NCBI GenBank assembly: GCA_963733095.1
Contig: CAVTBV010000005.1
Location: 1 to 64,000 of the forward strand
DNA: 64,000 bases
DNA from: Candidatus Bathyarchaeota archaeon
GTDB taxonomy: Archaea; Thermoproteota; Bathyarchaeia; Bathyarchaeales; Bathycorpusculaceae
Reading direction: 5' to 3'
The position numbers and the translations under genes were made by a program. Positions 560-12,499 of this stretch are shown in pieces. Numbering within the stretch: the stretch's first letter is position 1; the number at the start of each line of letters is the position of its first letter. Below the pieces are notes generated by a model. The model was not told where the DNA came from. It searched no databases and worked only from the letters and a program-made list of their open reading frames with translations.

Positions 560-826
560 TTAGTTCTTTCCTTTCAGCCAATCAAGCTGTTTATTCAATG
601 GCATTTTTGCGAAGGTTTCGAGTGCTAAGCAAACAAAGCAGTTTTCCGATACCTTGAATTGCTTGACTACTTGATCGAGGGCTTTTTCTGCGAGAGACGT
701 CTTTGGCAAGGTTTTCATTTCTACAAAAGGCTTCGAGCCTTTCGGGTTGTTTTTGCAGTGTTTACAGTTTGATGATTCATGGAGTTTCTCTATAGCGGTT
801 TTAAAATCATTTTGTTCTTTAGACAT
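560..826 (-). CDS. Small Cys-containing hypothetical protein
   Basis: 88 aa ORF with AGGAG RBS and CKHC motif. Confidence 0.65.
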   Translation of the reverse strand: MSKEQNDFKTAIEKLHESSNCKHCKNNPKGSKPFVEMKTLPKTSLAEKALDQVVKQFKVSENCFVCLALETFAKMPLNKQLDWLKGKN

Positions 827-848
827 TTTATTTTTCTCCTCACACTAT

Positions 849-937
849 TTTATATCGTTTTAGCTATAAATTAGGTATAATTAAATAATATTTAAATATA
901 TCGTTTGGGTAAGAAAATAGTAATAAAGGCGATATAA
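849..937. promoter_or_regulatory. Divergent promoter with TATATCG operator repeats
   Basis: TATATCGTTT at ~852 and ~897, inverted CGATATA at 930-936, between divergent genes. Confidence 0.55.
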
Positions 938-2454: not shown

Positions 2455-2529
2455 TTCCGTCTTTTTCCATGGACTTTATACATTCAAAGGCTAAAACAGA
2501 CTGTAAATCACTTATCTTTAGACCCCAAA

Positions 2530-2659
2530 TGTAACGCTTCTTTCCATACTTAGTATATATATGCGTTACAAAGCTCTTTTTTGCAATACCCCTACAGAAA
2601 CACTATTCAATTCTTTTAGACATAGAATAATCAAGATTTTCATGGGCGGCTGCGTTACA
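2530..2659. repeat. TGTAACGC/GCGTTACA inverted and direct repeats
   Basis: TGTAACGC 2530-2537, GCGTTACA 2563-2570 and 2652-2659. Confidence 0.6.
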
Positions 2660-2853
2660 CAATCTCCCCTCAACCATCCTTCTATGTTGTACTTAATCTA
2701 TATTAAGTAAAAAGGTCTCTGTGTGGAACAACACAATTCAATTTTTTTTTGAAGTTTTTTTTCCTTATAGAACCATGGTTTGATAGTAAACTAACCATAT
2801 CTGAAAGGCAAAGGTAAACAGAACAAGAAACTTAGAGAAGAATAAGTATAGAG

Positions 2854-3848
2854 TTAAAACTTCTTTGGTGTAACGTAAGGCTCAACACAAGTTCTCCAGG
2901 TTTCTCTCCAACCTTCTTTGCTCTTGCTTGAGTAAACCCGCTTCTGTTCCTCAACAGTCTTGCCCATAAAGAAATCAAGGTAGCGATCAACCGCTCTATT
3001 GTGTTCGCTGTCTCCGGTTGTGCTGTCTCTTGCCAATGTGCTGCCTGAAGCCCTTAAGGAATGTGTACAGCAAGTCTGTGCGTTCCCCTTTCTCAAACTT
3101 CTCTCCAAGAAAAAGCTCAGCCTTCCTTCTGAAGTAAGCGCATGTTTGAACCTTAGAAGTGGGAAACAGTTTAGTGTCAGAAGTGAGTCCATCTTTTAAT
3201 TGAGGGTCTAACCACTTGTTAAGTTCTTTGATTCCCCACTTACCAATAAAGCTCATAAAAGGAATATCTGATTTCACTCTCTCAGTGTCTATGCAAAGTG
3301 GAACTCTGTTGGCTTCATACTCCTTTTGAATATCCCCGTAAGTAAGAGCTAGAGTAGTGGAGCAATCAATGAAAGATTGAAAGATGAGAACACCCATGCT
3401 TCGATACATCTGAGAATCAAACAAGTTAAAGAAACGTACAACATCTTCAACAGTCCAAGCATACTTCTTAAGGTCTGGATTACTAGCAGGTAAATGAGTA
3501 TCGTTTGTTGAGAAAGGCACATGATATTTCTTTGCTAACTGTTGAACACTTGCCACATAGACCCTAACTGTTTTGCGCTTAAACATCTTAACCTTGAGCA
3601 ACCAATCCACATACTTTCGAATAACTGTTGAAGCAACATCTTCCGCTTGTCGCCAACCTAACCCTCTATCTCTTTCGAGTTTATCTAAGAAATCTGGAAT
3701 AGACCCTTGAGGTTTATAGAACTCTTCAAACGTCAAAAGCCCAGCTCGATATACTTCGTGTACCTGGATTCTTTCCCTCTAAGAACTCTTCTATTTTAGG
3801 ATCAAAGGTACCGAGATATTGAGGCTTGTTGATTTGAGTTAATGTCAT
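2854..3848 (-). CDS. Tyrosine recombinase with atypical box I, at least two frameshifts
   Basis: ATG 3848 with GAGG RBS; FQSFIDCSTTLALTYGDI (box I), HSLRA (HxxR), FFMGK...RVY (catalytic Tyr) over ORFs 2996..3736 and 2854..3192. Confidence 0.8.
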
Positions 3849-3869
3849 CTAGTCAACCTCTATGTGCAA

Positions 3870-4325
3870 TCAATGAACCTTGGTTAAGGTCCAACCAAAT
3901 ACTTTCAATTGAACGTTGATTTCGGTAAGGAGTTGATGTGCTTCAAACGACTGGCCTTCTTCAAGTGATAGTTTGTTTTCTTCAGGCTGTAGTTGATCTT
4001 CTGATTCTTCTATTCTTTCGACCTGATACGCTATAGCCTTCTGGGATTCTGTAAGTGAGAGTTCAAGCTTCCGGTGATTAGCGGCTTGGACTAACGTGTA
4101 CGCTAATCGTTGTGGGTCTGAATTGTTGGGAAGCTTGAACTCCTGGGATGGCTGGTTCCATGTCTGCTTTGCTTTGGCGACTATGATAAAATTCGGATGG
4201 TTAGTTTGATTGATAGAATTCTTTAGTGGCACCGTTTTATTATTTGTGTCCTGACGTTTGCTTTTCGCTTCGGCTAATCCAAGACTTACTTTTTTCTTCC
4301 TTGTTTTTTTAGTCAATGTTATCAA
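3870..4325 (-). CDS. Hypothetical protein, paralog of 4322..4816
   Basis: Shared WxQPS..xLP...A.xLVQ..ANxxxLEL.LxES pattern. Confidence 0.75.
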   Translation of the reverse strand: MITLTKKTRKKKVSLGLAEAKSKRQDTNNKTVPLKNSINQTNHPNFIIVAKAKQTWNQPSQEFKLPNNSDPQRLAYTLVQAANHRKLELSLTESQKAIAYQVERIEESEDQLQPEENKLSLEEGQSFEAHQLLTEINVQLKVFGWTLTKVH

Positions 4326-4816
4326 CCTTCTGCAATTAATGAATAACCGAATTGTGCAAGTTCAGATCGCAAATTGGAAACGTACTCAAAAGACGCGTAA
4401 CTTTGATTTGGTAAAATAATATTTTCCGGTGGTTGCTCAGTTATCTCTGGGTTGTTCGGGTCTGGGTCTTCTTGCTTTGAGACCTTGAATCTTAAGATGT
4501 TTTGATTTGATTCGATTAATTCGAGTTCAAGTTCTTTTCTATTTGCAAGAACCTGGACTAACTGGAACGCTGCTTTCTTTGATTCCATAGGAGGCAACCT
4601 GCCAACTAGGCTTGGCTGGGTCCACGAAGCAGCTATTTTCACTAAAAAAGCTGGGCTAAATGCTGTAGAAATGTTAGACTTTTCACGGTCTAGTTCATTG
4701 TTAGGTGCTGGTGCTTTAAAAGTTGGTTTAGGTTTCTTTTGGCTGTAATGAGGGGCACCACTGTTATGATGACTTTGTTGGCCGTAACCATGACCTCCAC
4801 GTGCATTATAACCCAA
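4322..4816 (-). CDS. Hypothetical protein, paralog of 3870..4325
   Basis: GGAGG RBS; stop overlaps next start; shared motif. Confidence 0.75.
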   Translation of the reverse strand: MGYNARGGHGYGQQSHHNSGAPHYSQKKPKPTFKAPAPNNELDREKSNISTAFSPAFLVKIAASWTQPSLVGRLPPMESKKAAFQLVQVLANRKELELELIESNQNILRFKVSKQEDPDPNNPEITEQPPENIILPNQSYASFEYVSNLRSELAQFGYSLIAEG

Positions 4817-4831
4817 TTTCTTGAATCCTCC

Positions 4832-5359
4832 TTAAACTTTTCTTGATATTAGAACTGCCATTGAACCGAAAGCAGAAAAGATAGCTCCGAGCGCAACTAA
4901 CAACGGTTTAGTGGGTAACAGATCAAGTATTTGGTTTGATATTGGCGTTGGTGAAGGCGCAACGTATGTTGATCCAGTAACGATTAAAGTGGCATAACAG
5001 TTAATTGTAGTTGTTCCGTCAACAGTGACTTGACATACAATTGGATAACTACCAGGACTCCCATAAAACAAGAACATTGAAGAACCGGTTACAGGTAAAG
5101 TATTTCCGTCAGCCAACCAATGATACGTTATTTGATGAGCCGAGCCGTCAAACTTTAGAGTGGTAGTAAACAACTGAGATTGATTGACTCCGACTGTTGC
5201 TGAAATTGGAGTAAGATCAACAGCATACGCATTGTTTTCGCTATAGAATAGACTTAGCGGCTTAACATCAGCAACAACTAGCCCAATAAGTGATATGCCT
5301 AAAAATAGTGAAATTAACCCTGATACAAGAAGAATTTGTTTCGTCTTTTTCGTTGTCAA
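4832..5359 (-). CDS. Membrane protein with PKD/Ig-like domain
   Basis: N-terminal TM/signal, ITYHW..DG...PGSYPIVCQVT PKD-like pattern, PSPTP linker, C-terminal TM. Confidence 0.75.
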   Translation of the reverse strand: MTTKKTKQILLVSGLISLFLGISLIGLVVADVKPLSLFYSENNAYAVDLTPISATVGVNQSQLFTTTLKFDGSAHQITYHWLADGNTLPVTGSSMFLFYGSPGSYPIVCQVTVDGTTTINCYATLIVTGSTYVAPSPTPISNQILDLLPTKPLLVALGAIFSAFGSMAVLISRKV

Positions 5360-5389
5360 TTCTTAAACCTCTTTAATTGTTTCTTCATA

Positions 5390-5625
5390 GAAAAAAGGGA
5401 TACTGGAAACAAGGAATGAAAATTGAAAATAACTTCGTTGATTTGGTTGAAGGTTCCCAGTACCCCTAAGAGACGCCGGAGGACAAGCATCTTCATAGCA
5501 TAGGTGAGAGTGCCAGTTCGCAAAAAAACTGACCCCCATACTTTAAAGATCACTTGCACTTCCAGCACTCTCAATAGAAAAAAGAGTAGACAGAAGACGT
5601 TGATTCTTGCTTCTTTTCTACTTTT
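5390..5625 (-). ncRNA. Putative structured RNA/leader with four hairpins
   Basis: Minus-strand stems AGTAGAAAAGAAG/CTTCTGTCTACT, TGAGAGTGCTGG/CTGGCACTCTCA, AGATGCT/GGCGTCT, AGGGGTACTGGGAAC/GTTTCCAGTATCCCT with many G-U pairs; U6 tracts follow stems 1 and 4. Confidence 0.6.
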
Positions 5626-5662
5626 AACTGATATTAGAGAAGTATTATTAGCACACTGCTAC

Positions 5663-6214
5663 TTATCTATAATAGTGCCGAGCAATGTCGTGCTCAGAGT
5701 ATTTTGTAACAAAGGCATCGAACCATTCTACAGCAAATCGCTTGAAAGTAAATGCCATAGCATCGTTGCCTGGTTTCAACAACCCAAGAACTAAATCATG
5801 TTGGTCGTGTAAATGTTTTAAAGCAATAATGAATTTAGCGCATGTTCCAGGATCAGGAAAATGGCCGCCTCTTTTAGACTTTGATTTAGGATAAAATCTG
5901 TAAATATCAGTCTTTATTATGCTAGGTACGCCTGGGAGAAAAGTTTCTTTTAACTTCTGGTTATCTGCCCATATACGCCCAGGAATATCATTACCCAAAA
6001 ACTCACAATATTTTTGAAAGATTTTCAACCGTTCTTCAGGTCTTAATAAACTGGCAATATTAGAGTACATTTCATAATCAGTCATGCTGTTCCTTAAGGC
6101 CACCCCTTGCCAATTCAATCTTTCTTTTCCCTCATTGTTATTTATTTCTTGTTTTTTCTTCAATTCTTGTTCTTTCTTGTTGATGTAGTGGCGATTTATT
6201 TCTTCATCGTTCAT
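5663..6214 (-). CDS. Hypothetical protein
   Basis: 183 aa ORF, leaderless ATG downstream of a TATA-like box. Confidence 0.7.
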   Translation of the reverse strand: MNDEEINRHYINKKEQELKKKQEINNNEGKERLNWQGVALRNSMTDYEMYSNIASLLRPEERLKIFQKYCEFLGNDIPGRIWADNQKLKETFLPGVPSIIKTDIYRFYPKSKSKRGGHFPDPGTCAKFIIALKHLHDQHDLVLGLLKPGNDAMAFTFKRFAVEWFDAFVTKYSEHDIARHYYR

Positions 6215-6303
6215 AGTAGCATAGTGCTACATTCAAGCTTAAATATTTAACGGTTTTTCAATTATCACCTTGAAATAAGGTTTTTTCTGTGTCCTTTTTC
6301 TTT

Positions 6304-6324
6304 TGACAGTTGTTAAGACTGTCA
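6304..6324. promoter_or_regulatory. Palindromic operator TGACAGT-N7-ACTGTCA
   Basis: Perfect 7-bp inverted repeat just upstream of the wHTH gene in a divergent region. Confidence 0.6.
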
Positions 6325-6342
6325 TAGTGAGGTTAGATAAAA

Positions 6343-6594
6343 TTGGAAAAAGGATATGATGAAAAAATCCTCAGTCTACTTGAGAAGACAGACACACCAA
6401 CAGATACAGAAAAAATTCGATTAGAAGTTGGAATAGGAAACTGGAGCACAGCTTTAGCACATTGCTTAGGATTACTAATGGCTAAAAAGATCAGTGGAGT
6501 CAAGACAAGCAAGTCTTGGGTTTTTTGGTCCAAAAACAGATCAGTAGCACTATTTGGCACTCTAGAAAAGAAAGAAGTAGCAGTGGAGGCCTAA
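6343..6594 (+). CDS. Winged-helix regulator
   Basis: TDTEKIRLEVGIGNWSTALAHCLGL HTH and GVKTSKSWVFW wing. Confidence 0.75.
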   Translation: MEKGYDEKILSLLEKTDTPTDTEKIRLEVGIGNWSTALAHCLGLLMAKKISGVKTSKSWVFWSKNRSVALFGTLEKKEVAVEA

Positions 6595-6600
6595 GCAAAA

Positions 6601-6846
6601 TTGCCATGCCTTCCATTCCTTTCAATCATTAGACGTCACAATCTTGGTCCTTTGAACGGTTACCTAGATAAAGAAACGACGCCTAAATTTGAAAAACCAA
6701 AGATCTGTCGCGTTTGCGATTACTTTCAAAAAGAAAATTATTGCAGACTTAACGCCATGTATGGAATTAAAGAAGAATCCAAGGCATGTTTCCGAGCCAT
6801 ACCCATCCAAAATAAGAGAGGATTACATTGGTATCAAAACCTGTAA
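6601..6846 (+). CDS. Small Cys-rich protein
   Basis: CRVCDYF...CRL...C motif. Confidence 0.6.
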   Translation: MPCLPFLSIIRRHNLGPLNGYLDKETTPKFEKPKICRVCDYFQKENYCRLNAMYGIKEESKACFRAIPIQNKRGLHWYQNL

Positions 6847-7001
6847 AACCTGAATTCTGTAGCTCATGCAATTACTATGAACCTGGAAGAACTTCCTGCA
6901 AATTAGGCTTCTACACTAATCCAAGAAATCGTTGTTGCGGAGAAGGAAAACTCATAGAAAAATCGGGTGAAAAACCAAAGTGTCAGACCGTTTCTTTTTG
7001 A
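6828..7001 (+). CDS. Small Cys-rich protein (57 aa, below ORF-track cutoff)
   Basis: TTG with GAGG RBS; FCSSCNYY...CKLG...CC. Confidence 0.55.
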   Translation: MVSKPVKPEFCSSCNYYEPGRTSCKLGFYTNPRNRCCGEGKLIEKSGEKPKCQTVSF

Positions 7002-7962: not shown

Positions 7963-8196
7963 TTGACCGAGCACTTTTTTAAATGTCCCGATCCTGATTG
8001 TAACTGCCTTTTCCTGACACAACACGACTTAAACAAGCACATAACCAAGTTTGGAGAAAAACACGGCCAAGCACTCAAAGAAGTACACCAAAATTCTGAC
8101 AATCATTATGCCTCAATGGAATTTTCCGCGGCTGACAAACTCCAGCAAGAACTCGGCAAAATAGTTTTAGAACATTATGGAGCGTCTAAACGTTGA
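7963..8196 (+). CDS. C2H2 zinc-finger protein
   Basis: FKCPDPDCNCLFLTQHDLNKH...H. Confidence 0.75.
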   Translation: MTEHFFKCPDPDCNCLFLTQHDLNKHITKFGEKHGQALKEVHQNSDNHYASMEFSAADKLQQELGKIVLEHYGASKR

Positions 8197-11100
8197 ACGC
8201 AACGCAAGAACAGCAAATCATCCTAGTGCAACGCCTCAAAGAAAAAGAGCTATCAGTTGACCGCTTTTTAAAAGTCGGACCCGACAAAGCAGCCTTTGAA
8301 ATGGAGTTTCAAAAACTACCCTATAGCCCAAGCGACTTAGCAAGCTACGACCCATGCAACTGCAAATACTGCCACGGAACACAACCACATAAAAGATGGG
8401 GAATACTCGGCAAAGACTTCTTAGTTTTAGTTGACACCGACAAAAAAGAAATGTATGATAATTTAAGCAAAGTTCTCCCTGAAACTTTTGAAGTAACAAG
8501 CCCACGTAGAGGTTTACCGCATAAATATTTTTGCGTATGCGGCGAACAAGTCCCAAATAAAACTCTATACTTAGAGGGGGATGTTGACGACAAAGGCAGA
8601 CCTAACGGCGCTGGAGAGATTCGAGCACAAAACGAGTACTTAGTAGCTCCTGGCACAGAAATCACTTACAAAGACTTAACGACAAGTGAAGAAAAAACTG
8701 GAATGTACGTTATCTCCAAAAACGTACCAATCGCACGGATCGAATACGCCGAATTTATGGCCGCTGTGAAAACTTATTTCGGCAAAAATCAATCCCAAAA
8801 TATAACACGTGAAGAAATGGCTAACGGTGTTTCATCTGGAATGCGTCATGCTAAAGGTATAAGGTACGCTTGCCACTTAATCGGAAAAACAAAACTTGAC
8901 GCAGAAACAGCCTTTTTTGAGATGCAAAGATGGAATCAACTAAACAACCCTCCAATGGATGAAAAAGACCTTAAACGCCAAGTAAGAGATGCTTGCAGAT
9001 ACATAGCCAACGAAAACCAAATTCCAATAGAGCAAGTGATTGGATGCGGTGGAATAAAGAACCCAATATTTGTAGAGATAGACCAAGACGATTTAAAGGC
9101 AAAAACAGAACCAATTATACCAGGCGACATAAAAAAAGTCACGTATGCTGAAGCCCAGTCTCTTTTAGCACAAGGTTACGAAGTAACAAAAAGATATGCA
9201 GAAACGGTGGTAGTTGAGAGAAAAGCTTCAGGTTCAGAACAAACAAACGACGATGATAAGCCGATTGAAAGTCAAGCTGATCGACTAATAAAATATTGCC
9301 TTGATGAAATTCCAGAACTGTTTTTCGATCAACATGGCACACAATACGTCAGGGTTAAGTTAGCATTTAATCCTTTAACGCTCTTAGAAAAGGAGCTTGA
9401 TTTAGGCAATAAATCACGACATCACGACATTAACGATAAAAGTAACACCAATAGGGAAACCCCAAAAAATGAAGATGAAGAGAAAATAGAGGGTTCCCCT
9501 AAGAAGGCAGAAACACCGTTAATAGCGAGATGTCGTGATTACAAAAAGAAAATACAAGAGCTAAAAGAGCAACTTAAGGAAGCAAAAACCGACGACGAAC
9601 GCGAAGCAATAATTAACGCTATGCAATCGGAAAAACAAAACTTGCCCAAGCGAAACGTGATAATGCCTATTGAAAGTCAACAGTTCCGGAAATGGTTAGC
9701 TTATCTTATGTATGAAGCCGAAGAGAAAGTACCTGGAGGCGACAGCGTAAGAAATGCGATAAGTGTTCTTGGAGGTAAAATTCAAAAAGAAAGGCCGACA
9801 ATTCACGTTATATAACCGAGTAGCCCCGGCTGAAGCTGGAATATTCTTAGACATGTGTGATGATTCATGGCGAGCCATTAAAGTAACCGTTGAAGGCTGG
9901 GAGATTGTCAACGAAACCCCGTTTCCGCTTTTCAAACGCTATGCACATCAACAGCCACTAGTCGAACCTTTAACGGATAAAAAACAAGGCTCCGCATGGA
10001 AACTTTTGGAATTTATTAATATAAAAAGCAGTGATGCAAACTCAAAATTAGCCTTGCTGTGTTCAGTAATTAGTTATTGGATTCCCCTGATAGCTCACCC
10101 GGCTATAGTTGCAAGCGGCGCTCAAGGTACGTGTAAAAGTTGGTTTTTCAATGTTATCCGACAAGTGATTGACCCATCAAGCATTCCACTATTAACTGTG
10201 CCTAAAGATGATAGAGAAATGGCTCAACATTTAGAGCACAATTGGTTGACTCCTTATGATAATATTTCCAGTTTACCGAGCTGGGCTAGTAATATGTTAT
10301 GTCGCGCCGTAACTGGGGGAGGCATTGCAGTAAGAAAACTATACACCGACGACGAGGACATAATCTTAAACTTTAAAAGGTGTATCATGCTTAATGGAAT
10401 CAACGTAAGTGCTCAGAGCAGTGACCTTTTAGACCGATCCTTCATTTTTGCTTTAGAAACCATAAATAAACGTAAAACAGAAAAACAGTTATCAATCGAA
10501 TTGGAAAAAGCTAAACCTATTATCCTAACAGGGTTTCTTAATGTCTTGTCTAAAGCACTCAAAATTTATCCATCGGTCGAACTTAAAGAAATTCAACGGT
10601 TAAGCGACTTTCACTTTTACGGCTGTGCCATTGCTGAAGCGTTAGATAAATCTCAAGATCAGTTTAGCGAAGCATACAGAGAGAAAGTAAAAGCTCAGAA
10701 TGAAGAAGCATTAAACAACCAAGTGGCTTTAGCGGTTTTGAAATTTGCAGAGTTAACCGTTAAACCTATAGACACTGTGGATTTCGCTGGAACACCATTA
10801 AAATCTTACTGGATAGATCAGCCTTCAGCCTTATTTGCGAAACTAAATTACATTGCCGTTAATATTCTGAGCATTGACATAAAGACTAACAAAGAATGGC
10901 CGCGAAGCCCAGGCGCATTAACAAGAAAAATAAACGTTTTAATACCTAACCTGAAAGCGGTCGGGGTAGAAATTGTTAATTATTCGACGCATCCACGGCA
11001 AATAAGCATAGACGCAAAAAACCTAATAGTAAAAGAGCCTCCTTCCGATCCAGCAACAAACGCTATGGGAAAACGCTATTGCCGTGGCGAATGCGAAAAT

Positions 11101-11226: not shown

Positions 11227-12360
11227 TTGGAACCTCAAGTTCAAATCGCTAACCTTGTTTGCCCTGAATGCGGCAGCGATAAAGCTTTTAAAAATGGCAC
11301 TAGAGAGCTACCAAACGGCGAAATAAAGCAGCGCTATATGTGCCGTCAATGCATGCACAGATATACGTTCCCACCAGCCTTAAAAGTCAAGGATAATGTA
11401 GATAACAACAACCAAATAGGCGCCTTTAAGGTGAAAAACTTGGTTCTCACAACCCAAAATGAAGTTGTGGGTGATAACGCAAAATTATTCGACTTCCTAG
11501 AATGGATGAAACAGCAAGGCTATAAAAAATCAACTATTGATAGAAGGCAATCAGCTTTAACAGGGCTACAAAAACTTAAGGCAAACTTAGAAATGCCCGA
11601 ATCAGTAAAATCCGTTATATCAAAACAGGAACATTGGAAAGACTCGCAAAAACAAGTAGTGGTATTTGCTTATGATCTCTACGCTAAACATTACGGTTTC
11701 ACATGGGATAGACCATATTACGAAGCAATCCGCGAACTGCCATTTATCCCTCAAGAACGAGAAATTGACGATTTAATTGCAGGTGTCAACAAAGAAATAG
11801 GCTTGCTCTTGCTAATTGCAAAAGAAACAGGTGCTAGAGCTGGAGAAATTTACGGTTTACTATGGACTGACATTGACTTTGAATCTAAAACATTAAGCAT
11901 AAGGGCAGAAAAAAACAGCAATCCAAGACGCTTTATATTAAAACCTAAACTTCTTAACATGCTTGAATGCTATCCTAAATCAACTGAAAGTATTTTCAGC
12001 CGCTACAAATCCTTGAATGACCTGAGACGTACTTTTGAAAGACAACGGAAACGGCTTGCTTACAAACTATCAAATCCCAGGATGCACAAAATAAAAATCC
12101 ATACATTAAGACATTGGAAAGGAACCACTGAGTACGATAAAACAAAAGATATTCTCCATGTTATGCAAGTGCTTGGACACAAGAACATCAAGAATACTTT
12201 GCTCTATACGCAGCTTGTTAGTGTTGGTGAAGATAAAGGGTTTATTTGCAAGGTAGCTAAAACCCCGACTGAAGCAGTTGCATTGATTGAAGATGGCTTT
12301 GAATTGCATTGTTGTTATGGCGAAAAAGACGAAGTTAAACTGTTTAGGAAGAAAAAATGA
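11227..12360 (+). CDS. int: Tyrosine integrase with N-terminal zinc ribbon
   Basis: CPECG...CRQC ribbon; TGARAGE, HTLRH, LGH, Y catalytic set intact; adjacent to tRNA. Confidence 0.93.
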   Translation: MEPQVQIANLVCPECGSDKAFKNGTRELPNGEIKQRYMCRQCMHRYTFPPALKVKDNVDNNNQIGAFKVKNLVLTTQNEVVGDNAKLFDFLEWMKQQGYKKSTIDRRQSALTGLQKLKANLEMPESVKSVISKQEHWKDSQKQVVVFAYDLYAKHYGFTWDRPYYEAIRELPFIPQEREIDDLIAGVNKEIGLLLLIAKETGARAGEIYGLLWTDIDFESKTLSIRAEKNSNPRRFILKPKLLNMLECYPKSTESIFSRYKSLNDLRRTFERQRKRLAYKLSNPRMHKIKIHTLRHWKGTTEYDKTKDILHVMQVLGHKNIKNTLLYTQLVSVGEDKGFICKVAKTPTEAVALIEDGFELHCCYGEKDEVKLFRKKK

Positions 12361-12422: not shown

Positions 12423-12499
12423 TGGTGCCGAGGGCAGGGTTTGAACATGCGACGACTCGGTCTTCAGCCGAGCGCTCTCCCAGGCTGAGCTACCTCGGC
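12423..12499 (-). tRNA. tRNA-Phe(GAA)
   Basis: GCCGAGG...CTCGG CTGAAGA CCGAG...TTCAAAC...CCTCGGC A CCA cloverleaf. Confidence 0.95.

Follow-up and report, generated by a model that had tools for sequence, protein, structure and literature searches.

A covarying leader RNA with a putative leader ORF heads the operon of a small integrated element in a soil archaeon

INTRODUCTION

The window analyzed here is a 64,000-nt stretch of a Candidatus Bathyarchaeota genome. Close to its beginning, between the minus-strand genes 6214..5663 and 5359..4832, lies an intergenic structured stretch, and the question it raises is what a folded RNA does in front of the genes that follow. The RNA heads the operon of a small integrated mobile element in a soil archaeon; the element carries an integrase (11227–12360) and a prim-pol (8193–9815). 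No convincing direct repeats bounding the integrated element were found, and a search for McrA gave no match. A preliminary description had proposed four consecutive hairpins at 5390–5625, forming either an attenuator- or riboswitch-like leader or a stand-alone noncoding partner of the proteins encoded nearby. The functional unit exceeds these coordinates and extends at least over 5577–5356 of the minus strand. The analysis below leads us to a leader that is probably translated and whose translation may control the downstream genes.

RESULTS

The gene-sense strand folds beyond expectation

Folding energies of the 5360–5662 region were compared with those of dinucleotide shuffles. The minus strand folds with −92.5 kcal/mol (z −5.03) and none of 100 shuffles was as good, whereas the plus strand reaches −69.6 kcal/mol (z −2.01), with 6 of 100 shuffles as good. 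The folding excess is thus on the gene-sense strand, and the asymmetry is repeated in a paralogous leader on contig C13 (−92.6 versus −58.0 kcal/mol). It had been argued earlier that imperfections that read as G-U pairs on the minus strand and as A-C mismatches on the plus strand point to selection on an RNA. This argument holds, since the window’s helices contain 57 Watson-Crick pairs, 17 G-U pairs, and no mismatches on the minus strand.

The four-stem model needed revision. Stems 1 (5622–5585) and 4 (5466–5397) are as originally described, but stems 2 and 3 merge into one structure, hairpin X. At equilibrium, the probability of stems 2 and 3 is ~0, while that of the long hairpin X, in which the 5′ arm pairs with the strand formerly given to stem 3, is ~1 in both the window and the paralog. 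The U6 tracts reported after stems 1 and 4 are both present. The resulting elements, in the order of transcription, are:

5585..5622, minus strand: stem 1, a hairpin followed by the first U6 tract (5583–5578) and CUAUUG
5466..5577, minus strand: hairpin X, conserved core, described by covariance models R1 and R2 with five full-length members
5397..5466, minus strand: hairpin Y (stem 4), a 14-bp stem with a 42-nt loop, followed by the second U6 tract (5396–5391) and CUAUG
5417..5427, minus strand: Y-loop motif UUCAAUUUUCA on the 3′ side of the Y loop, with related forms in the loop tails of other Y hairpins

When the whole window was searched against Rfam 15, two tRNAs were the sole matches at the gathering threshold. 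With permissive filters, the 5300–5720 region gave eight matches, all far under threshold (best, 21.9 bits versus 51); the best of them were snoRNA and miRNA models with E values of 0.75 to 9. The stretch therefore matches no known Rfam family, and the RNA defines a family absent from this database.

A candidate promoter precedes the leader

Two elements are located at the upstream end of the region:

5667..5674, minus strand: TATA-like box TATTATAG, read from the sequence, which extends over the final codons of the upstream 183-aa gene
5649..5661, minus strand: small palindrome TAGCA-N3-TGCTA near the predicted transcript start

The TATA-like box, which the preliminary description had placed in this vicinity, is found at 5674–5667 and is retained in the paralog, where it reads TTTTATAA. 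The block from the box to ~5640 is near-identical between the two loci, and some relatives have a similar box 20 to 24 nt upstream of X. We consider the box a candidate promoter of the leader transcript. The arms of the palindrome are identical in the window and the paralog, the 3-nt spacer differs, and RNAfold pairs both versions; the palindrome is either a 5′ hairpin or an operator.

The upstream 183-aa protein had no confirmed loci in genome, viral, or metagenome contigs, matches in 2 of 201 family genomes (the second with an E value of 9.9e-4 and internal stops), and three clusters among 5.8 billion proteins. An Atlas search pointed to an integrase N-terminal-like domain with a score of 0.87 to 0.88, which is a lead only.

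Homologous leaders are few

Five homologs were collected: the window, the paralog on C13, and three loci in two other genomes of the genus. The covariance-model scores of these full-length members (R1 and R2) are 132, 130, 94, 89, and 29 bits. At E ≤ 1, model R2 had matches in 5 of 120 genomes of the genus, and loci were accepted in 3 of 120: G000 (two loci), G275 (one), and G013 (two). Model matches in G310 (22 bits, with a long ORF overlapping the match on the opposite strand), in G273 and G008 (17 bits each), and on the antisense strand of the window itself (17.6 bits) were dropped. In a sample of the family, matches were found in 2 of 151 genomes, representing 1 of 70 genera. A BLASTN search of 61 genomes with the leader returned G000 only, plus three matches of 27 to 33 nt that are at chance level.

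Searches with short patterns gave a similar picture. The exact pattern of a conserved 22-mer had no matches in genome or viral contigs; two genomic near-matches were both copies of one unrelated repeated stretch. A 17-mer had no matches in viral contigs, and a 16-mer had 22, whose BLASTN alignments to the leaders did not exceed 30 nt and which were taken as chance.

Related contigs were present in three of four soil and peat sequencing runs, with those of run X7 covering the upstream gene only. One soil contig differs at 27 positions in total, of which at least 22 fall within 4847–5359, so that no more than 5 are in 5360–5573; in this contig, the leader is no less well preserved than the gene. 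Divergence of the soil contigs sets in exactly where X begins on its 5′ side (5573 and 5584). Stem 1 is absent from them and from the three homologs in other genomes and therefore lies outside the conserved core; the paralog has a different 6-bp hairpin with a U6 tract at its place. Overall, the reach of the leader is narrow so far, which limits its general importance.

The 5′ arm of hairpin X has two candidate partners

Hairpin X is the minimum-energy fold in all five homologs. Its 5′ arm pairs with a 3′ strand, the B arm, to form the long hairpin and can alternatively pair with an internal A arm, CUGGCACUCUC. The B structure comprises 37 pairs; 92.8% of alignment cells are paired, 16 pairs are changed on both sides, and none of 500 shuffles reaches these values (n = 5 sequences from three genomes). 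Since the alignment used (A11) was fitted to the B structure, it favors B; slid controls were 40 to 50% paired. The collection of homologs thus bears out the covariation that had been proposed as a check of the structure. For the A helix, 98.2% of cells are paired over 11 pairs, 2 pairs are changed on both sides, and 39 of 500 shuffles reach this level (n = 5 sequences).

Individual loci illustrate joint change of the three strands. A G-to-A change in the 5′ arm of one G013 locus (G013a) and a C-to-U change in that of the other (G013b) are each matched in both the A and the B arm. The G013a 5′ arm pairs with its own A arm at −16.7 kcal/mol, compared to −9.0 to −11.8 kcal/mol with the others, and with its own B arm at −14.5 kcal/mol, compared to −5.9 to −9.8 kcal/mol. 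Because the A and B arms resemble each other, such joint changes may in part stem from duplication or gene conversion. As for the original stem 2, its outer 11 bp are conserved as the alternative helix, but its two inner helices are lost in G275 (alignment read by eye), and in the paralog a C-A mismatch appears in one of them.

The X consensus is a single interrupted hairpin with no branch points. It shares with riboswitches and other cis-regulatory families of Rfam the 5′ leader position, conserved structure, and alternative pairing, but, being one long hairpin, it is without a multihelix junction or an evident ligand pocket, and there is no match to an Rfam aptamer. The riboswitch half of the original proposal is thus not borne out.

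A leader ORF starts inside hairpin X and ends at the next start codon

An open frame spans most of the structured region:

5568..5572, minus strand: SD-like GAGAG of the leader ORF, inside the X 5′ arm and paired in both the A and the B structures
5356..5559, minus strand: leader ORF of 67 codons, with a GTG start at 5559–5557 and a TGA stop at 5358–5356 that overlaps the TTG of the next gene

All five X-containing leaders have a GAG(A/G)G motif, a 7- to 8-nt spacer, and a start codon (GTG, GTG, ATG, GTG, and TTG) within the X 5′ arm, from which a frame of 65 to 99 codons runs across X, Y, and the U-tract. Counted from the first base of the downstream start to that of the stop, the offsets are +1, +1, +1, −4, and −6 nt, so that stop and start either overlap (TTGA and ATGA) or are 1 to 3 nt apart at each of the five loci. 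No in-frame stop occurred in 72, 88, 32, 68, and 24 of 5000 composition-preserving shuffles of the respective loci, and the other two frames of the leaders contain one to six stops. Indels of −1, +1, +4, and −1 nt between the window and the paralog together restore the frame. In simpler leaders of this operon family (G258, G305, G303, G276, and L037), hairpin and U-tract modules occur with no spanning ORF, as judged on five translations and, for the G303 leader, by eye.

The 3′ end of the 16S rRNA reads ...GGATCACCTCCT. In four of the five loci, the SD-like motif matches it over GAG only, and the leader SD is therefore weak. The predicted unpaired probability from the SD to the start is 0.02 to 0.23, which is not clearly below controls with shuffled downstream sequence (14, 5, 1, 14, and 1 of 60 were as low).

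The preliminary description had set its RNA reading against the possibility that an ORF at 5356..5574 is a conserved protein. The frame, its position, start, and stop are kept in 5 of 5 loci, but the peptide is not: the identity of leader peptides among the homologs is 19 to 39% versus 45 to 66% for nucleotides. Since the ORF is conserved and peptide identity is below nucleotide identity, the RNA appears to be a translated leader rather than a plain noncoding RNA.

The ORF may instead be a normal gene for a small protein that comes first in the operon and evolves fast, with a functional peptide and an mRNA structure that is incidental or additional. The SD-like motif, start codon, and open frame at all five loci fit such a gene, as do weak BLASTP matches of the window peptide to those of G013a (31% over 61 residues; E value, 2e-4) and G275 (E value, 0.002), both in a database of five sequences, and the finding that within the first 13 codons five of six window-paralog substitutions are at third positions. 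We nevertheless regard this explanation as rather unlikely. The peptide identity is far under that of the nucleotides, some conserved nucleotides are read in different frames by the window and the paralog after the indels, and each of the 16 double-changed pairs of X alters codons. The Y-loop motif also falls in different frames of the leader ORFs at different loci, which makes it a nucleotide-level motif. No relatives of the leader peptide were found among 5.8 billion predicted proteins (39 to 126 residues searched), and it has no Pfam match.

Alternatively, the leader could be untranslated, or be an independent small RNA whose 3′ end is the second U6 tract, and the open frame could be incidental. 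The strong structure and its covariation agree with this, the U-tracts after stem 1 and Y could yield discrete RNAs of ~60 and ~250 nt, and the conserved single-stranded Y-loop motif and ACUCUCA could bind a factor. However, chance would give an open frame in 0.5 to 1.8% of cases at each locus, and all five loci have one, with an aligned start and an end on the next start codon. The frame-restoring indels are likewise unaccounted for, and the second U6 tract is 31 nt from the start of the next gene, which leaves no space for a separate promoter. An untranslated leader therefore seems to us improbable, more so than a protein gene.

Hairpin Y and the oligo-U tracts recur in related leaders

Hairpins homologous to Y were found in 8 of 15 related leaders. 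Their arms vary between the eight loci yet stay complementary, with 93 Watson-Crick pairs, 11 G-U pairs, and no A-C mismatches. Cognate arms pair at −22.6 kcal/mol compared to −8.3 kcal/mol for non-cognate ones, and none of 20,000 permutations reaches the cognate total. Y is followed by U6 at three loci, by U5 in G275, and by U4 in G013b. The Y loops are 36 to 49 nt long across loci; that of stem 1 is 26 nt. The Y-loop motif was also considered as a genome-wide signal, and this was rejected: there were 11 matches versus ~3 expected, and the other 10 were in unrelated contexts.

A hairpin followed by T5-7 CT(A/T)T occurs in one to three copies in nearly all related leaders. This recurrence could mean that the region simply stacks terminators, which would shield the structural operon and the upstream regulatory gene from each other and do no switching; passages of one report describe oligo(dT) tracts as terminating archaeal transcription (PMC13681488). 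Several observations make such a stack doubtful, slightly more so than an untranslated leader. A canonical intrinsic terminator has a short G+C-rich stem and a loop of 3 to 8 nt, while the loops here are 26 and 42 nt, although U6 is present; the Y loop, with its conserved motif, is unlike that of a simple terminator. A consensus terminator scan of 2500–7000 found three sites, none of them on the minus strand within 5360–5662. Hairpin X is without a U-tract of its own in the five X-type leaders, yet it is their best conserved part. Only 36 to 41 nt separate X from the upstream stop in G013a and G013b; this spacer contains no hairpin with a U-tract, and X and Y are still kept. A terminator stack also leaves the ORF unexplained.

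A DNA-level element (an operator palindrome, replication origin, or recombination site of the integrated element) would suit the location in a mobile element with an integrase and a prim-pol, the inverted repeats, and the repeated 12-nt motif TTTTTTCT(A/T)TTG, but it is very improbable given the strand asymmetry of folding energy, the G-U pairs of the Y and window helices with no A-C or other mismatches, and the stem 2 arms, which match as a DNA palindrome at 9 of 11 positions in the window and 8 of 11 in the paralog and pair as RNA at 11 of 11 in both. Unlike integron attC sites and similar folded DNA, only the gene-sense strand pairs fully, and the two hairpins follow each other in tandem with no cassette between them.

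The leader precedes a constant operon

The genes that follow the leader are:

5357..5374, minus strand: RBS of the PKD-like membrane-protein gene, with AAAGAGG (5374–5368) and a TTG start (5359–5357)
4832..5359, minus strand: first structural gene, encoding a 175-aa protein that has hydrophobic segments at both termini and is PKD/Ig-like in between
4322..4816, minus strand: second gene, encoding a 164-aa “MGYNARGGHGYG...” (GYGNQ) protein

The leader is always directly upstream of the same operon, in which a PKD-like membrane protein and/or a GYGNQ protein comes first. The GYGNQ family is the protein constantly found downstream; at the G275 locus and the two G013 loci, a gene of this family follows immediately after the X-Y leader. 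The AlphaFold2 model of the GYGNQ protein has a mean pLDDT of 50.4, too poor for a fold search. The 175-aa membrane protein has no Pfam match, and an Atlas feature search gave PKD families at 0.87, again as a lead only. Alignment searches with it found no loci in viral contigs and one, L037, in the metagenome.

The supposed connection to the tyrosine recombinase that ends the window’s operon was not borne out, as no recombinase is present among the ORFs in 1.3 to 1.4 kb past the three homologous leaders in other genomes. Nor did we find a role for the RNA as a stand-alone partner of the proteins it had been linked with; the homologous leaders elsewhere precede GYGNQ genes.

The TTG start and a GAGG or GGGG motif are retained in the paralog and relatives. 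Sequestration of the membrane-protein RBS by the leader was considered and rejected, since in six of seven leaders shuffling the upstream sequence does not make this site more accessible. Pairing of the transcript 5′ end with this RBS stayed a weak candidate: cognate duplexes have only a slight advantage over swapped ones (shuffle fractions, 0.066 and 0.017), and further segments of the leader pair with it equally well. Given an SD of its own and an RBS that is no more sequestered than in shuffled controls, the downstream gene does not obviously require coupling to leader translation.

DISCUSSION

The attenuator half of the original proposal agrees with the gene-sense structure, its covariation, the constant position in front of the operon, and the hairpin and U-tract modules. 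The frame opens within X, the main hairpin, and closes where the next gene begins, and the leader therefore looks like a gate operated by ribosomes. On balance, we favor the view, based on sequence comparison, that this is a translated leader whose RBS is locked in X and which couples downstream expression to its own translation.

How such a gate might work can be outlined as follows. Transcription would begin at the TATA-like box (5674–5667 in the window), and the earliest-made RNA would contain GAGAG and the GTG start, that is, the RBS of the 67-codon leader ORF. The A arm, ~60 nt downstream, would capture this RBS first and the B arm, ~100 nt downstream, last, giving the long hairpin X. The leader would then be translated only by ribosomes that load early or when X is opened. 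A translating ribosome would cross X, Y, and the U6 tract and terminate on the start codon of the first structural gene, where it would be handed to the weak TTG start by termination-reinitiation and/or unfolding. On a ribosome-covered transcript, there should be less stopping at sites with a hairpin and oligo-U and less FttA-type termination on untranslated U-rich RNA. When the leader is not translated, the operon would stay off.

Passages of published work describe archaeal termination as relying on oligo(dT) tracts and on FttA, with FttA preferring U-rich RNA (PMC13681488), and part of another report attributes archaeal polarity, as a likely cause, to FttA (PMC12548453). The full device would be a ribosome-gated attenuator in Archaea: the RBS is closed stepwise by A and then B, and ribosome loading within the first ~60 to 100 nt melts Y, prevents oligo-U/FttA termination, and reinitiates on the structural gene. 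We put this complete scheme forward tentatively, as a possibility to which we give clearly less credence than to the gating of a translated leader.

Several known systems are related to parts of this arrangement. Bacterial leader-peptide attenuators include trpL, hisL, pheL, and bmrB-type leaders. As in these systems, a leader ORF, here a putatively translated one, with an RBS and a start codon lies upstream of the operon, a hairpin with a U-tract stands just before the structural genes, and the peptide sequence seems unimportant; portions of two reports describe such bacterial transcription attenuators (PMC4191407 and PMC2965389). In contrast to their 14 to 30 codons, the ORF here has 65 to 99, extends across the hairpin that resembles a terminator, and closes at the start codon of the next gene. 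One RNA strand may likewise alternate between two partners, but both of these predicted helices would sequester the leader’s own RBS, and neither would act as an antiterminator for Y. In the archaeal host, oligo-U termination needs no hairpin.

In translational coupling by termination-reinitiation, too, stop and start overlap or are separated by a very short gap, which is reportedly a requirement according to a study by Huber et al. from 2023. The leaders share this geometry (overlap or a 1- to 3-nt gap in five of five), the same-strand arrangement, and a downstream SD. The upstream partner here, however, is an open frame over a structured leader, not a conserved protein gene, and the coupling is predicted.

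The fold-back inhibition of IS10 is a case of RBS gating by long-range pairing. Such RNA-phage and IS systems resemble the proposed leader in that a long helix, formed with a distant strand, closes an RBS, which becomes accessible only transiently, in the course of synthesis or when a ribosome passes, and IS elements and the leader share a mobile-element setting; the leader differs from them by two covarying, putatively successive anti-RBS strands, by its archaeal host, and by the lack of any sequence relation. For phage MS2, gating of this kind between coat and lysis genes is mentioned in part of one report (PMC12548453).

Cis-acting RNA control is poorly charted in archaea. Our literature search found no report of a leader-ORF attenuation device in an archaeon. 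For ribosome-mediated attenuation, a textbook mechanism of bacteria, we know of no established archaeal example. If the proposed mechanism is true, this leader would be the first documented device of its kind in an archaeon, and the element would read the translational capacity of its host, or transcription-translation coupling, before expressing its structural operon. An RNA of ~220 nt that is supported by covariation and combines a leader ORF, two putatively competing anti-RBS strands, a hairpin with oligo-U, and a stop-start overlap is a test object that can be mutated. It bears on the interplay of transcription-translation coupling with oligo-U or FttA termination in archaea and on how archaeal integrated elements silence their structural genes.

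Genomic setting of the leader

The leader occupies the intergenic stretch 5360-5662 on the minus strand, ahead of an operon for a PKD-like membrane protein and GYGNQ proteins. The window is contig C5 of an archaeal genome, 2.84 Mb in size and 95% complete, in which the archaeal SSU model wins the clan competition with 1484 bits; soil and peat metagenome runs contain related DNA. The surrounding features are as follows.

6214..5663, minus strand: upstream gene, 183 aa, no Pfam or PHROG family
5359..4832, minus strand: downstream membrane-protein gene, 175 aa, hydrophobic ends, TTG start
4816..4322 and 4325..3870, minus strand: two paralogous proteins, 3′ of the membrane-protein gene
3736..2996, minus strand: ORF of 246 aa beyond the two paralogs, no Pfam or PHROG match
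8193-9815, plus strand: prim-pol/PriCT_1 protein
11227-12360, plus strand: tyrosine integrase (Pfam Phage_integrase, 2.3e-16) with an N-terminal zinc-ribbon-like stretch
12423-12499, minus strand: tRNA-Phe, adjoining the integrase

Since the operon shares this region with the prim-pol gene and an integrase beside tRNA-Phe, the locus looks like part of a small integrated element of ~10 kb; no convincing direct repeats were found flanking it. A 112-aa ORF, 3192..2854 (minus strand), overlaps ORF 3736..2996 in another frame and contains HSLRASGSTLA and, later, RVY, which we take to resemble the C-terminal boxes of tyrosine recombinases. Because such boxes sit in the overlapping second frame, the two ORFs (2854-3736) may be a frameshifted recombinase; the 112-aa piece, too, had no match in Pfam. 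A small protein (83 and 94 aa) is near-identical in both element copies (6343-6594, plus strand, in the window; 617-901, minus strand, at locus L002). Its gene is divergent from the 183-aa/168-aa gene, it has no Pfam or PHROG match, and it may be the element's regulator.

The leader RNA forms a long conserved hairpin

The preliminary description had proposed a four-hairpin RNA read from the minus strand. When both strands of 5360-5662 were folded, the excess over shuffles was present, with −92.5 kcal/mol on the minus strand (z −5.03, 0 of 100 shuffles as good) versus −69.6 kcal/mol on the plus strand (z −2.01, 6 of 100). The window helices on the minus strand comprise 57 Watson-Crick and 17 G-U pairs with no mismatch, which bears out the strand argument for selection on RNA. 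U6 tracts do follow stem 1 (5583-5578) and stem 4 (5396-5391), and the TATA-like box is TATTATAG at 5674-5667. No Rfam family matched the region, permissive thresholds included. Stems 2 and 3 did not survive as separate hairpins: their equilibrium probability is ~0, and the 5′ arm pairs with the stem-3 strand instead. Of stem 2, the outer 11 bp are kept as an alternative pairing (the A arm, below), and its two inner helices are not conserved. The outcome is one long interrupted hairpin, X (5577-5466), with a probability of ~1 in the window and in a paralogous leader. Readings of this leader as a riboswitch in the aptamer sense, a DNA palindrome, or a canonical terminator were rejected.

The paralogous leader lies on contig C13 of the same genome, is 79% identical over 205 nt, and has the same gene order; the upstream proteins are 73% and the membrane proteins 52% identical, and within the RNA core, blocks of 17 and 22 nt are identical. 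RNAalifold of the two copies gave 33 pairs, all of them intact; 5 differ on one side only and 1 differs on both. We turned this alignment into a covariance model (R1) and searched 120 genomes of the genus, which yielded two further full-length copies, in genomes G275 (46.6 bits, E 1.2e-8) and G013 (contig 2; 38.6 bits, E 1.7e-6). A second model built from these four sequences (R2) added another on G013 contig 1 (28.9 bits, E 4e-4). Among 151 genomes sampled across 70 genera of the family, matches were confined to this genus. Weak model hits in G310, G273, and G008 and an antisense self-hit were inspected and discarded.

In the five-sequence alignment, structure B, in which the 5′ arm of X pairs with its distal B arm, has 37 pairs with 92.8% of cells paired and 16 pairs changed on both sides, in an alignment that was fitted to B and so favors it. 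None of 500 shuffles reached any of five measures, and sliding the structure by 1 to 3 columns left 40 to 50% pairing. Independently of the alignment, B is the minimum-energy fold of each of the five sequences taken singly.

Soil contigs match the membrane-protein gene and the leader as far as 5573 or 5584 and diverge beyond; the conserved unit therefore begins at the 5′ edge of X and continues to the gene, and stem 1 and the 183-aa gene are outside it. One soil contig of 1116 nt has 27 differences, at least 22 of them in coding sequence (4847-5359), so that at most 5 lie in 5360-5573. Near-identical copies of at least 620 bp on C13 (486741, plus strand) and C16 (38510, minus strand) each contain a three-mismatch match to the leader's 22-mer; because the sequence around them shows no relation to the leader, this match is probably a coincidence within a repeated gene.

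The 5′ arm has a probable alternative partner

The 5′ arm of X can also pair with the internal A arm (structure A). This helix has 98.2% of cells paired, against 36 to 47% in slid controls, and 2 of its pairs changed on both sides. Because the arms vary little, shuffling is a weak control here (39 of 500 shuffles did as well). Two events are informative. In G013a, one of the two G013 copies, a G-to-A change in the 5′ arm has matching changes at three places: the A arm, the B arm, and the inner strand to which the A arm pairs in structure B. In the other, G013b, a C-to-U change is matched in the A and B arms. The G013a 5′ arm pairs with its own A arm at −16.7 kcal/mol versus −9.0 to −11.8 with those of the others, and with its own B arm at −14.5 versus −5.9 to −9.8 kcal/mol. 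Structure B leaves the A arm's 3′ half (ACUCUC) unpaired, yet these bases are almost invariant. From these two events in five sequences, A and B look like mutually exclusive helices under selection.

Hairpin Y and a wider leader family

Among 120 genus and 332 family genomes, full-length relatives of the membrane protein were confined to G258 (three loci) and G305; one more came from a metagenome contig. Members of the second gene's family (M[GS]YN..G.GYGNQ) were found in 8 of 120 genus genomes. These proteins (4322-4816 and 3870-4325, minus strand, in the window) have a basic, Gly/Arg-rich N terminus and belong to no known family, and an AlphaFold2 model was poor (pLDDT 50). G303, G276, and G258 each carry at least two family matches close by on one contig.

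We read the DNA 5′ of these operons at 16 loci and scanned 15 leaders automatically. Nearly all 16 loci have one to three hairpin modules, each ending in T5-7 CT(A/T)T; GAGG and a start codon come next. A large hairpin of the stem-4 type, with 11 to 16 contiguous pairs, a 35- to 49-nt loop, and a U-tract tail, is present in 8 of the 15 scanned leaders; in the window, this is Y (5466-5397, minus strand). Near the 3′ side of its loop, most of the eight have related forms of a motif that reads UUCAAUUUUCA in the window (5427-5417, minus strand). In the window and seven other loci, it is single-stranded and lies 2 to 6 nt before the 3′ arm. Coding does not explain the motif, because reading frames differ between loci. 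The Y arms vary by locus: cognate arms average −22.6 versus −8.3 kcal/mol for non-cognate ones, and none of 20,000 permutations reached the cognate total. Since only cognate arms pair and the stems comprise 93 Watson-Crick and 11 G-U pairs with no A-C, Y is also a sense-strand RNA structure.

In G275, G013a, and G013b, the X-Y leader lies immediately 5′ of the GYGNQ-protein gene, without the PKD membrane gene. The RNA belongs with the operon. A partnership with the encoded proteins, suggested at the outset, is not supported, whether with any single one of them or with the recombinase, which was absent from the ORFs read up to 1.3 to 1.4 kb past these three leaders.

A ~12-nt motif, TTTTTTCT(A/T)TTG, occurs two to three times per leader (5572-5583 and 5386-5396 in the window, minus strand; also at L012, L013, L029, L037, L074, L077, L079, and L080); TTTTTTCTAT has 48 occurrences genome-wide. 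One occurrence comes before the G-rich 5′ arm of a hairpin and another before the GAGG at the real start; given this shared position, the hairpin 5′ arms look like copies of the ribosome-binding region. By eye, a TATA-like box (CTTAAAAG once, TTTTATCG twice) lies ~20 to 24 nt 5′ of X at L068 (G013 contig 2), L089 (G013 contig 1), and in one soil contig, where the transcript may start right at the leader's Shine-Dalgarno (SD) sequence. In the window and paralog, it lies ~95 nt 5′ of X, with stem 1 and U6 between.

An open frame spans the leader

In both the window and the paralog, 100 codons without a stop cross the entire leader (6 and 3 of 2000 shuffles were as long), and the indels between the two copies (−1, +1, +4, and −1 nt) restore the frame. 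In all five homologs, the 5′ arm of X contains GAG(A/G)G, a 7- to 8-nt spacer, and then a start codon (GTG, GTG, ATG, GTG, and TTG), whose position coincides in the alignment. The resulting ORFs of 67, 65, 92, 66, and 99 codons span X, Y, and the U-tract and stop at +1, +1, +1, −4, and −6 nt from the first base of the next start codon, in TTGA or ATGA overlaps or with 1- to 3-nt gaps. Coupling through termination-reinitiation reportedly requires overlaps or very short gaps (Huber et al. 2023, as cited in PMC12548453). Composition-preserving shuffles were stop-free in 72, 88, 32, 68, and 24 of 5000 cases, and the other two frames hold one to six stops. The ordinary ribosome-binding site (RBS) of structural genes in these elements consists of a T-tract, CTATTGAGG, 7 to 9 nt, and a start codon; the leader ORF has the same layout, and the 16S rRNA 3′ end is ...CACCTCCT.

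Leader peptides are 19 to 39% identical versus 45 to 66% for nucleotides, the conserved nucleotides are read in differing frames between loci, and no peptide relatives were found among 5.8 billion predicted proteins. ORF 5356..5574, which the preliminary description had set against its RNA should it encode a conserved protein, is kept as an open frame but not as a protein. By these comparisons, what is conserved is a predicted open frame whose start and end are both fixed, rather than a protein.

A proposed ribosome-gated leader

Both structures pair the leader SD, and B also pairs part of the start codon; the putative leader-ORF RBS is within covariation-supported helices. Structures and frame are what we observed, and the steps that follow are inferred from them. 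Once made, the RBS would stay open for a short time only: the A arm, made ~60 nt later, would shut it first, and the B arm, ~100 nt later, would lock it. A ribosome loaded in time would translate X, Y, and the U6 tract and terminate on the next start codon, where it could feed the weak TTG start of the structural gene. It would also keep the nascent RNA covered, shielding it from oligo-U stopping or factor-dependent termination. Termination by archaeal polymerases occurs at oligo(dT) tracts and via FttA, which prefers U-rich RNA (PMC13681488), and FttA is the likely cause of archaeal polarity (PMC12548453).

Several points stand against this mechanism. The SD-like motif is weak in four of five loci; predicted leader-RBS accessibility (0.02 to 0.23) is not clearly below that of shuffled downstream sequence; the structural gene has its own SD without unusual sequestration; and the simpler leaders of the operon family have no spanning frame. 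A ribosome-gated translated leader is nevertheless the most likely reading of the predicted structures and frame.

In its proposed working, the leader is closest to a bacterial leader-peptide attenuator with translational coupling, and RNA phages and IS elements offer parallels to the RBS gating. No leader-ORF attenuator in an archaeon turned up in the literature searched, and we know of no such device in archaea. The mechanism is a proposal; the RNA family, narrowly distributed, is real and, with no Rfam family, new.
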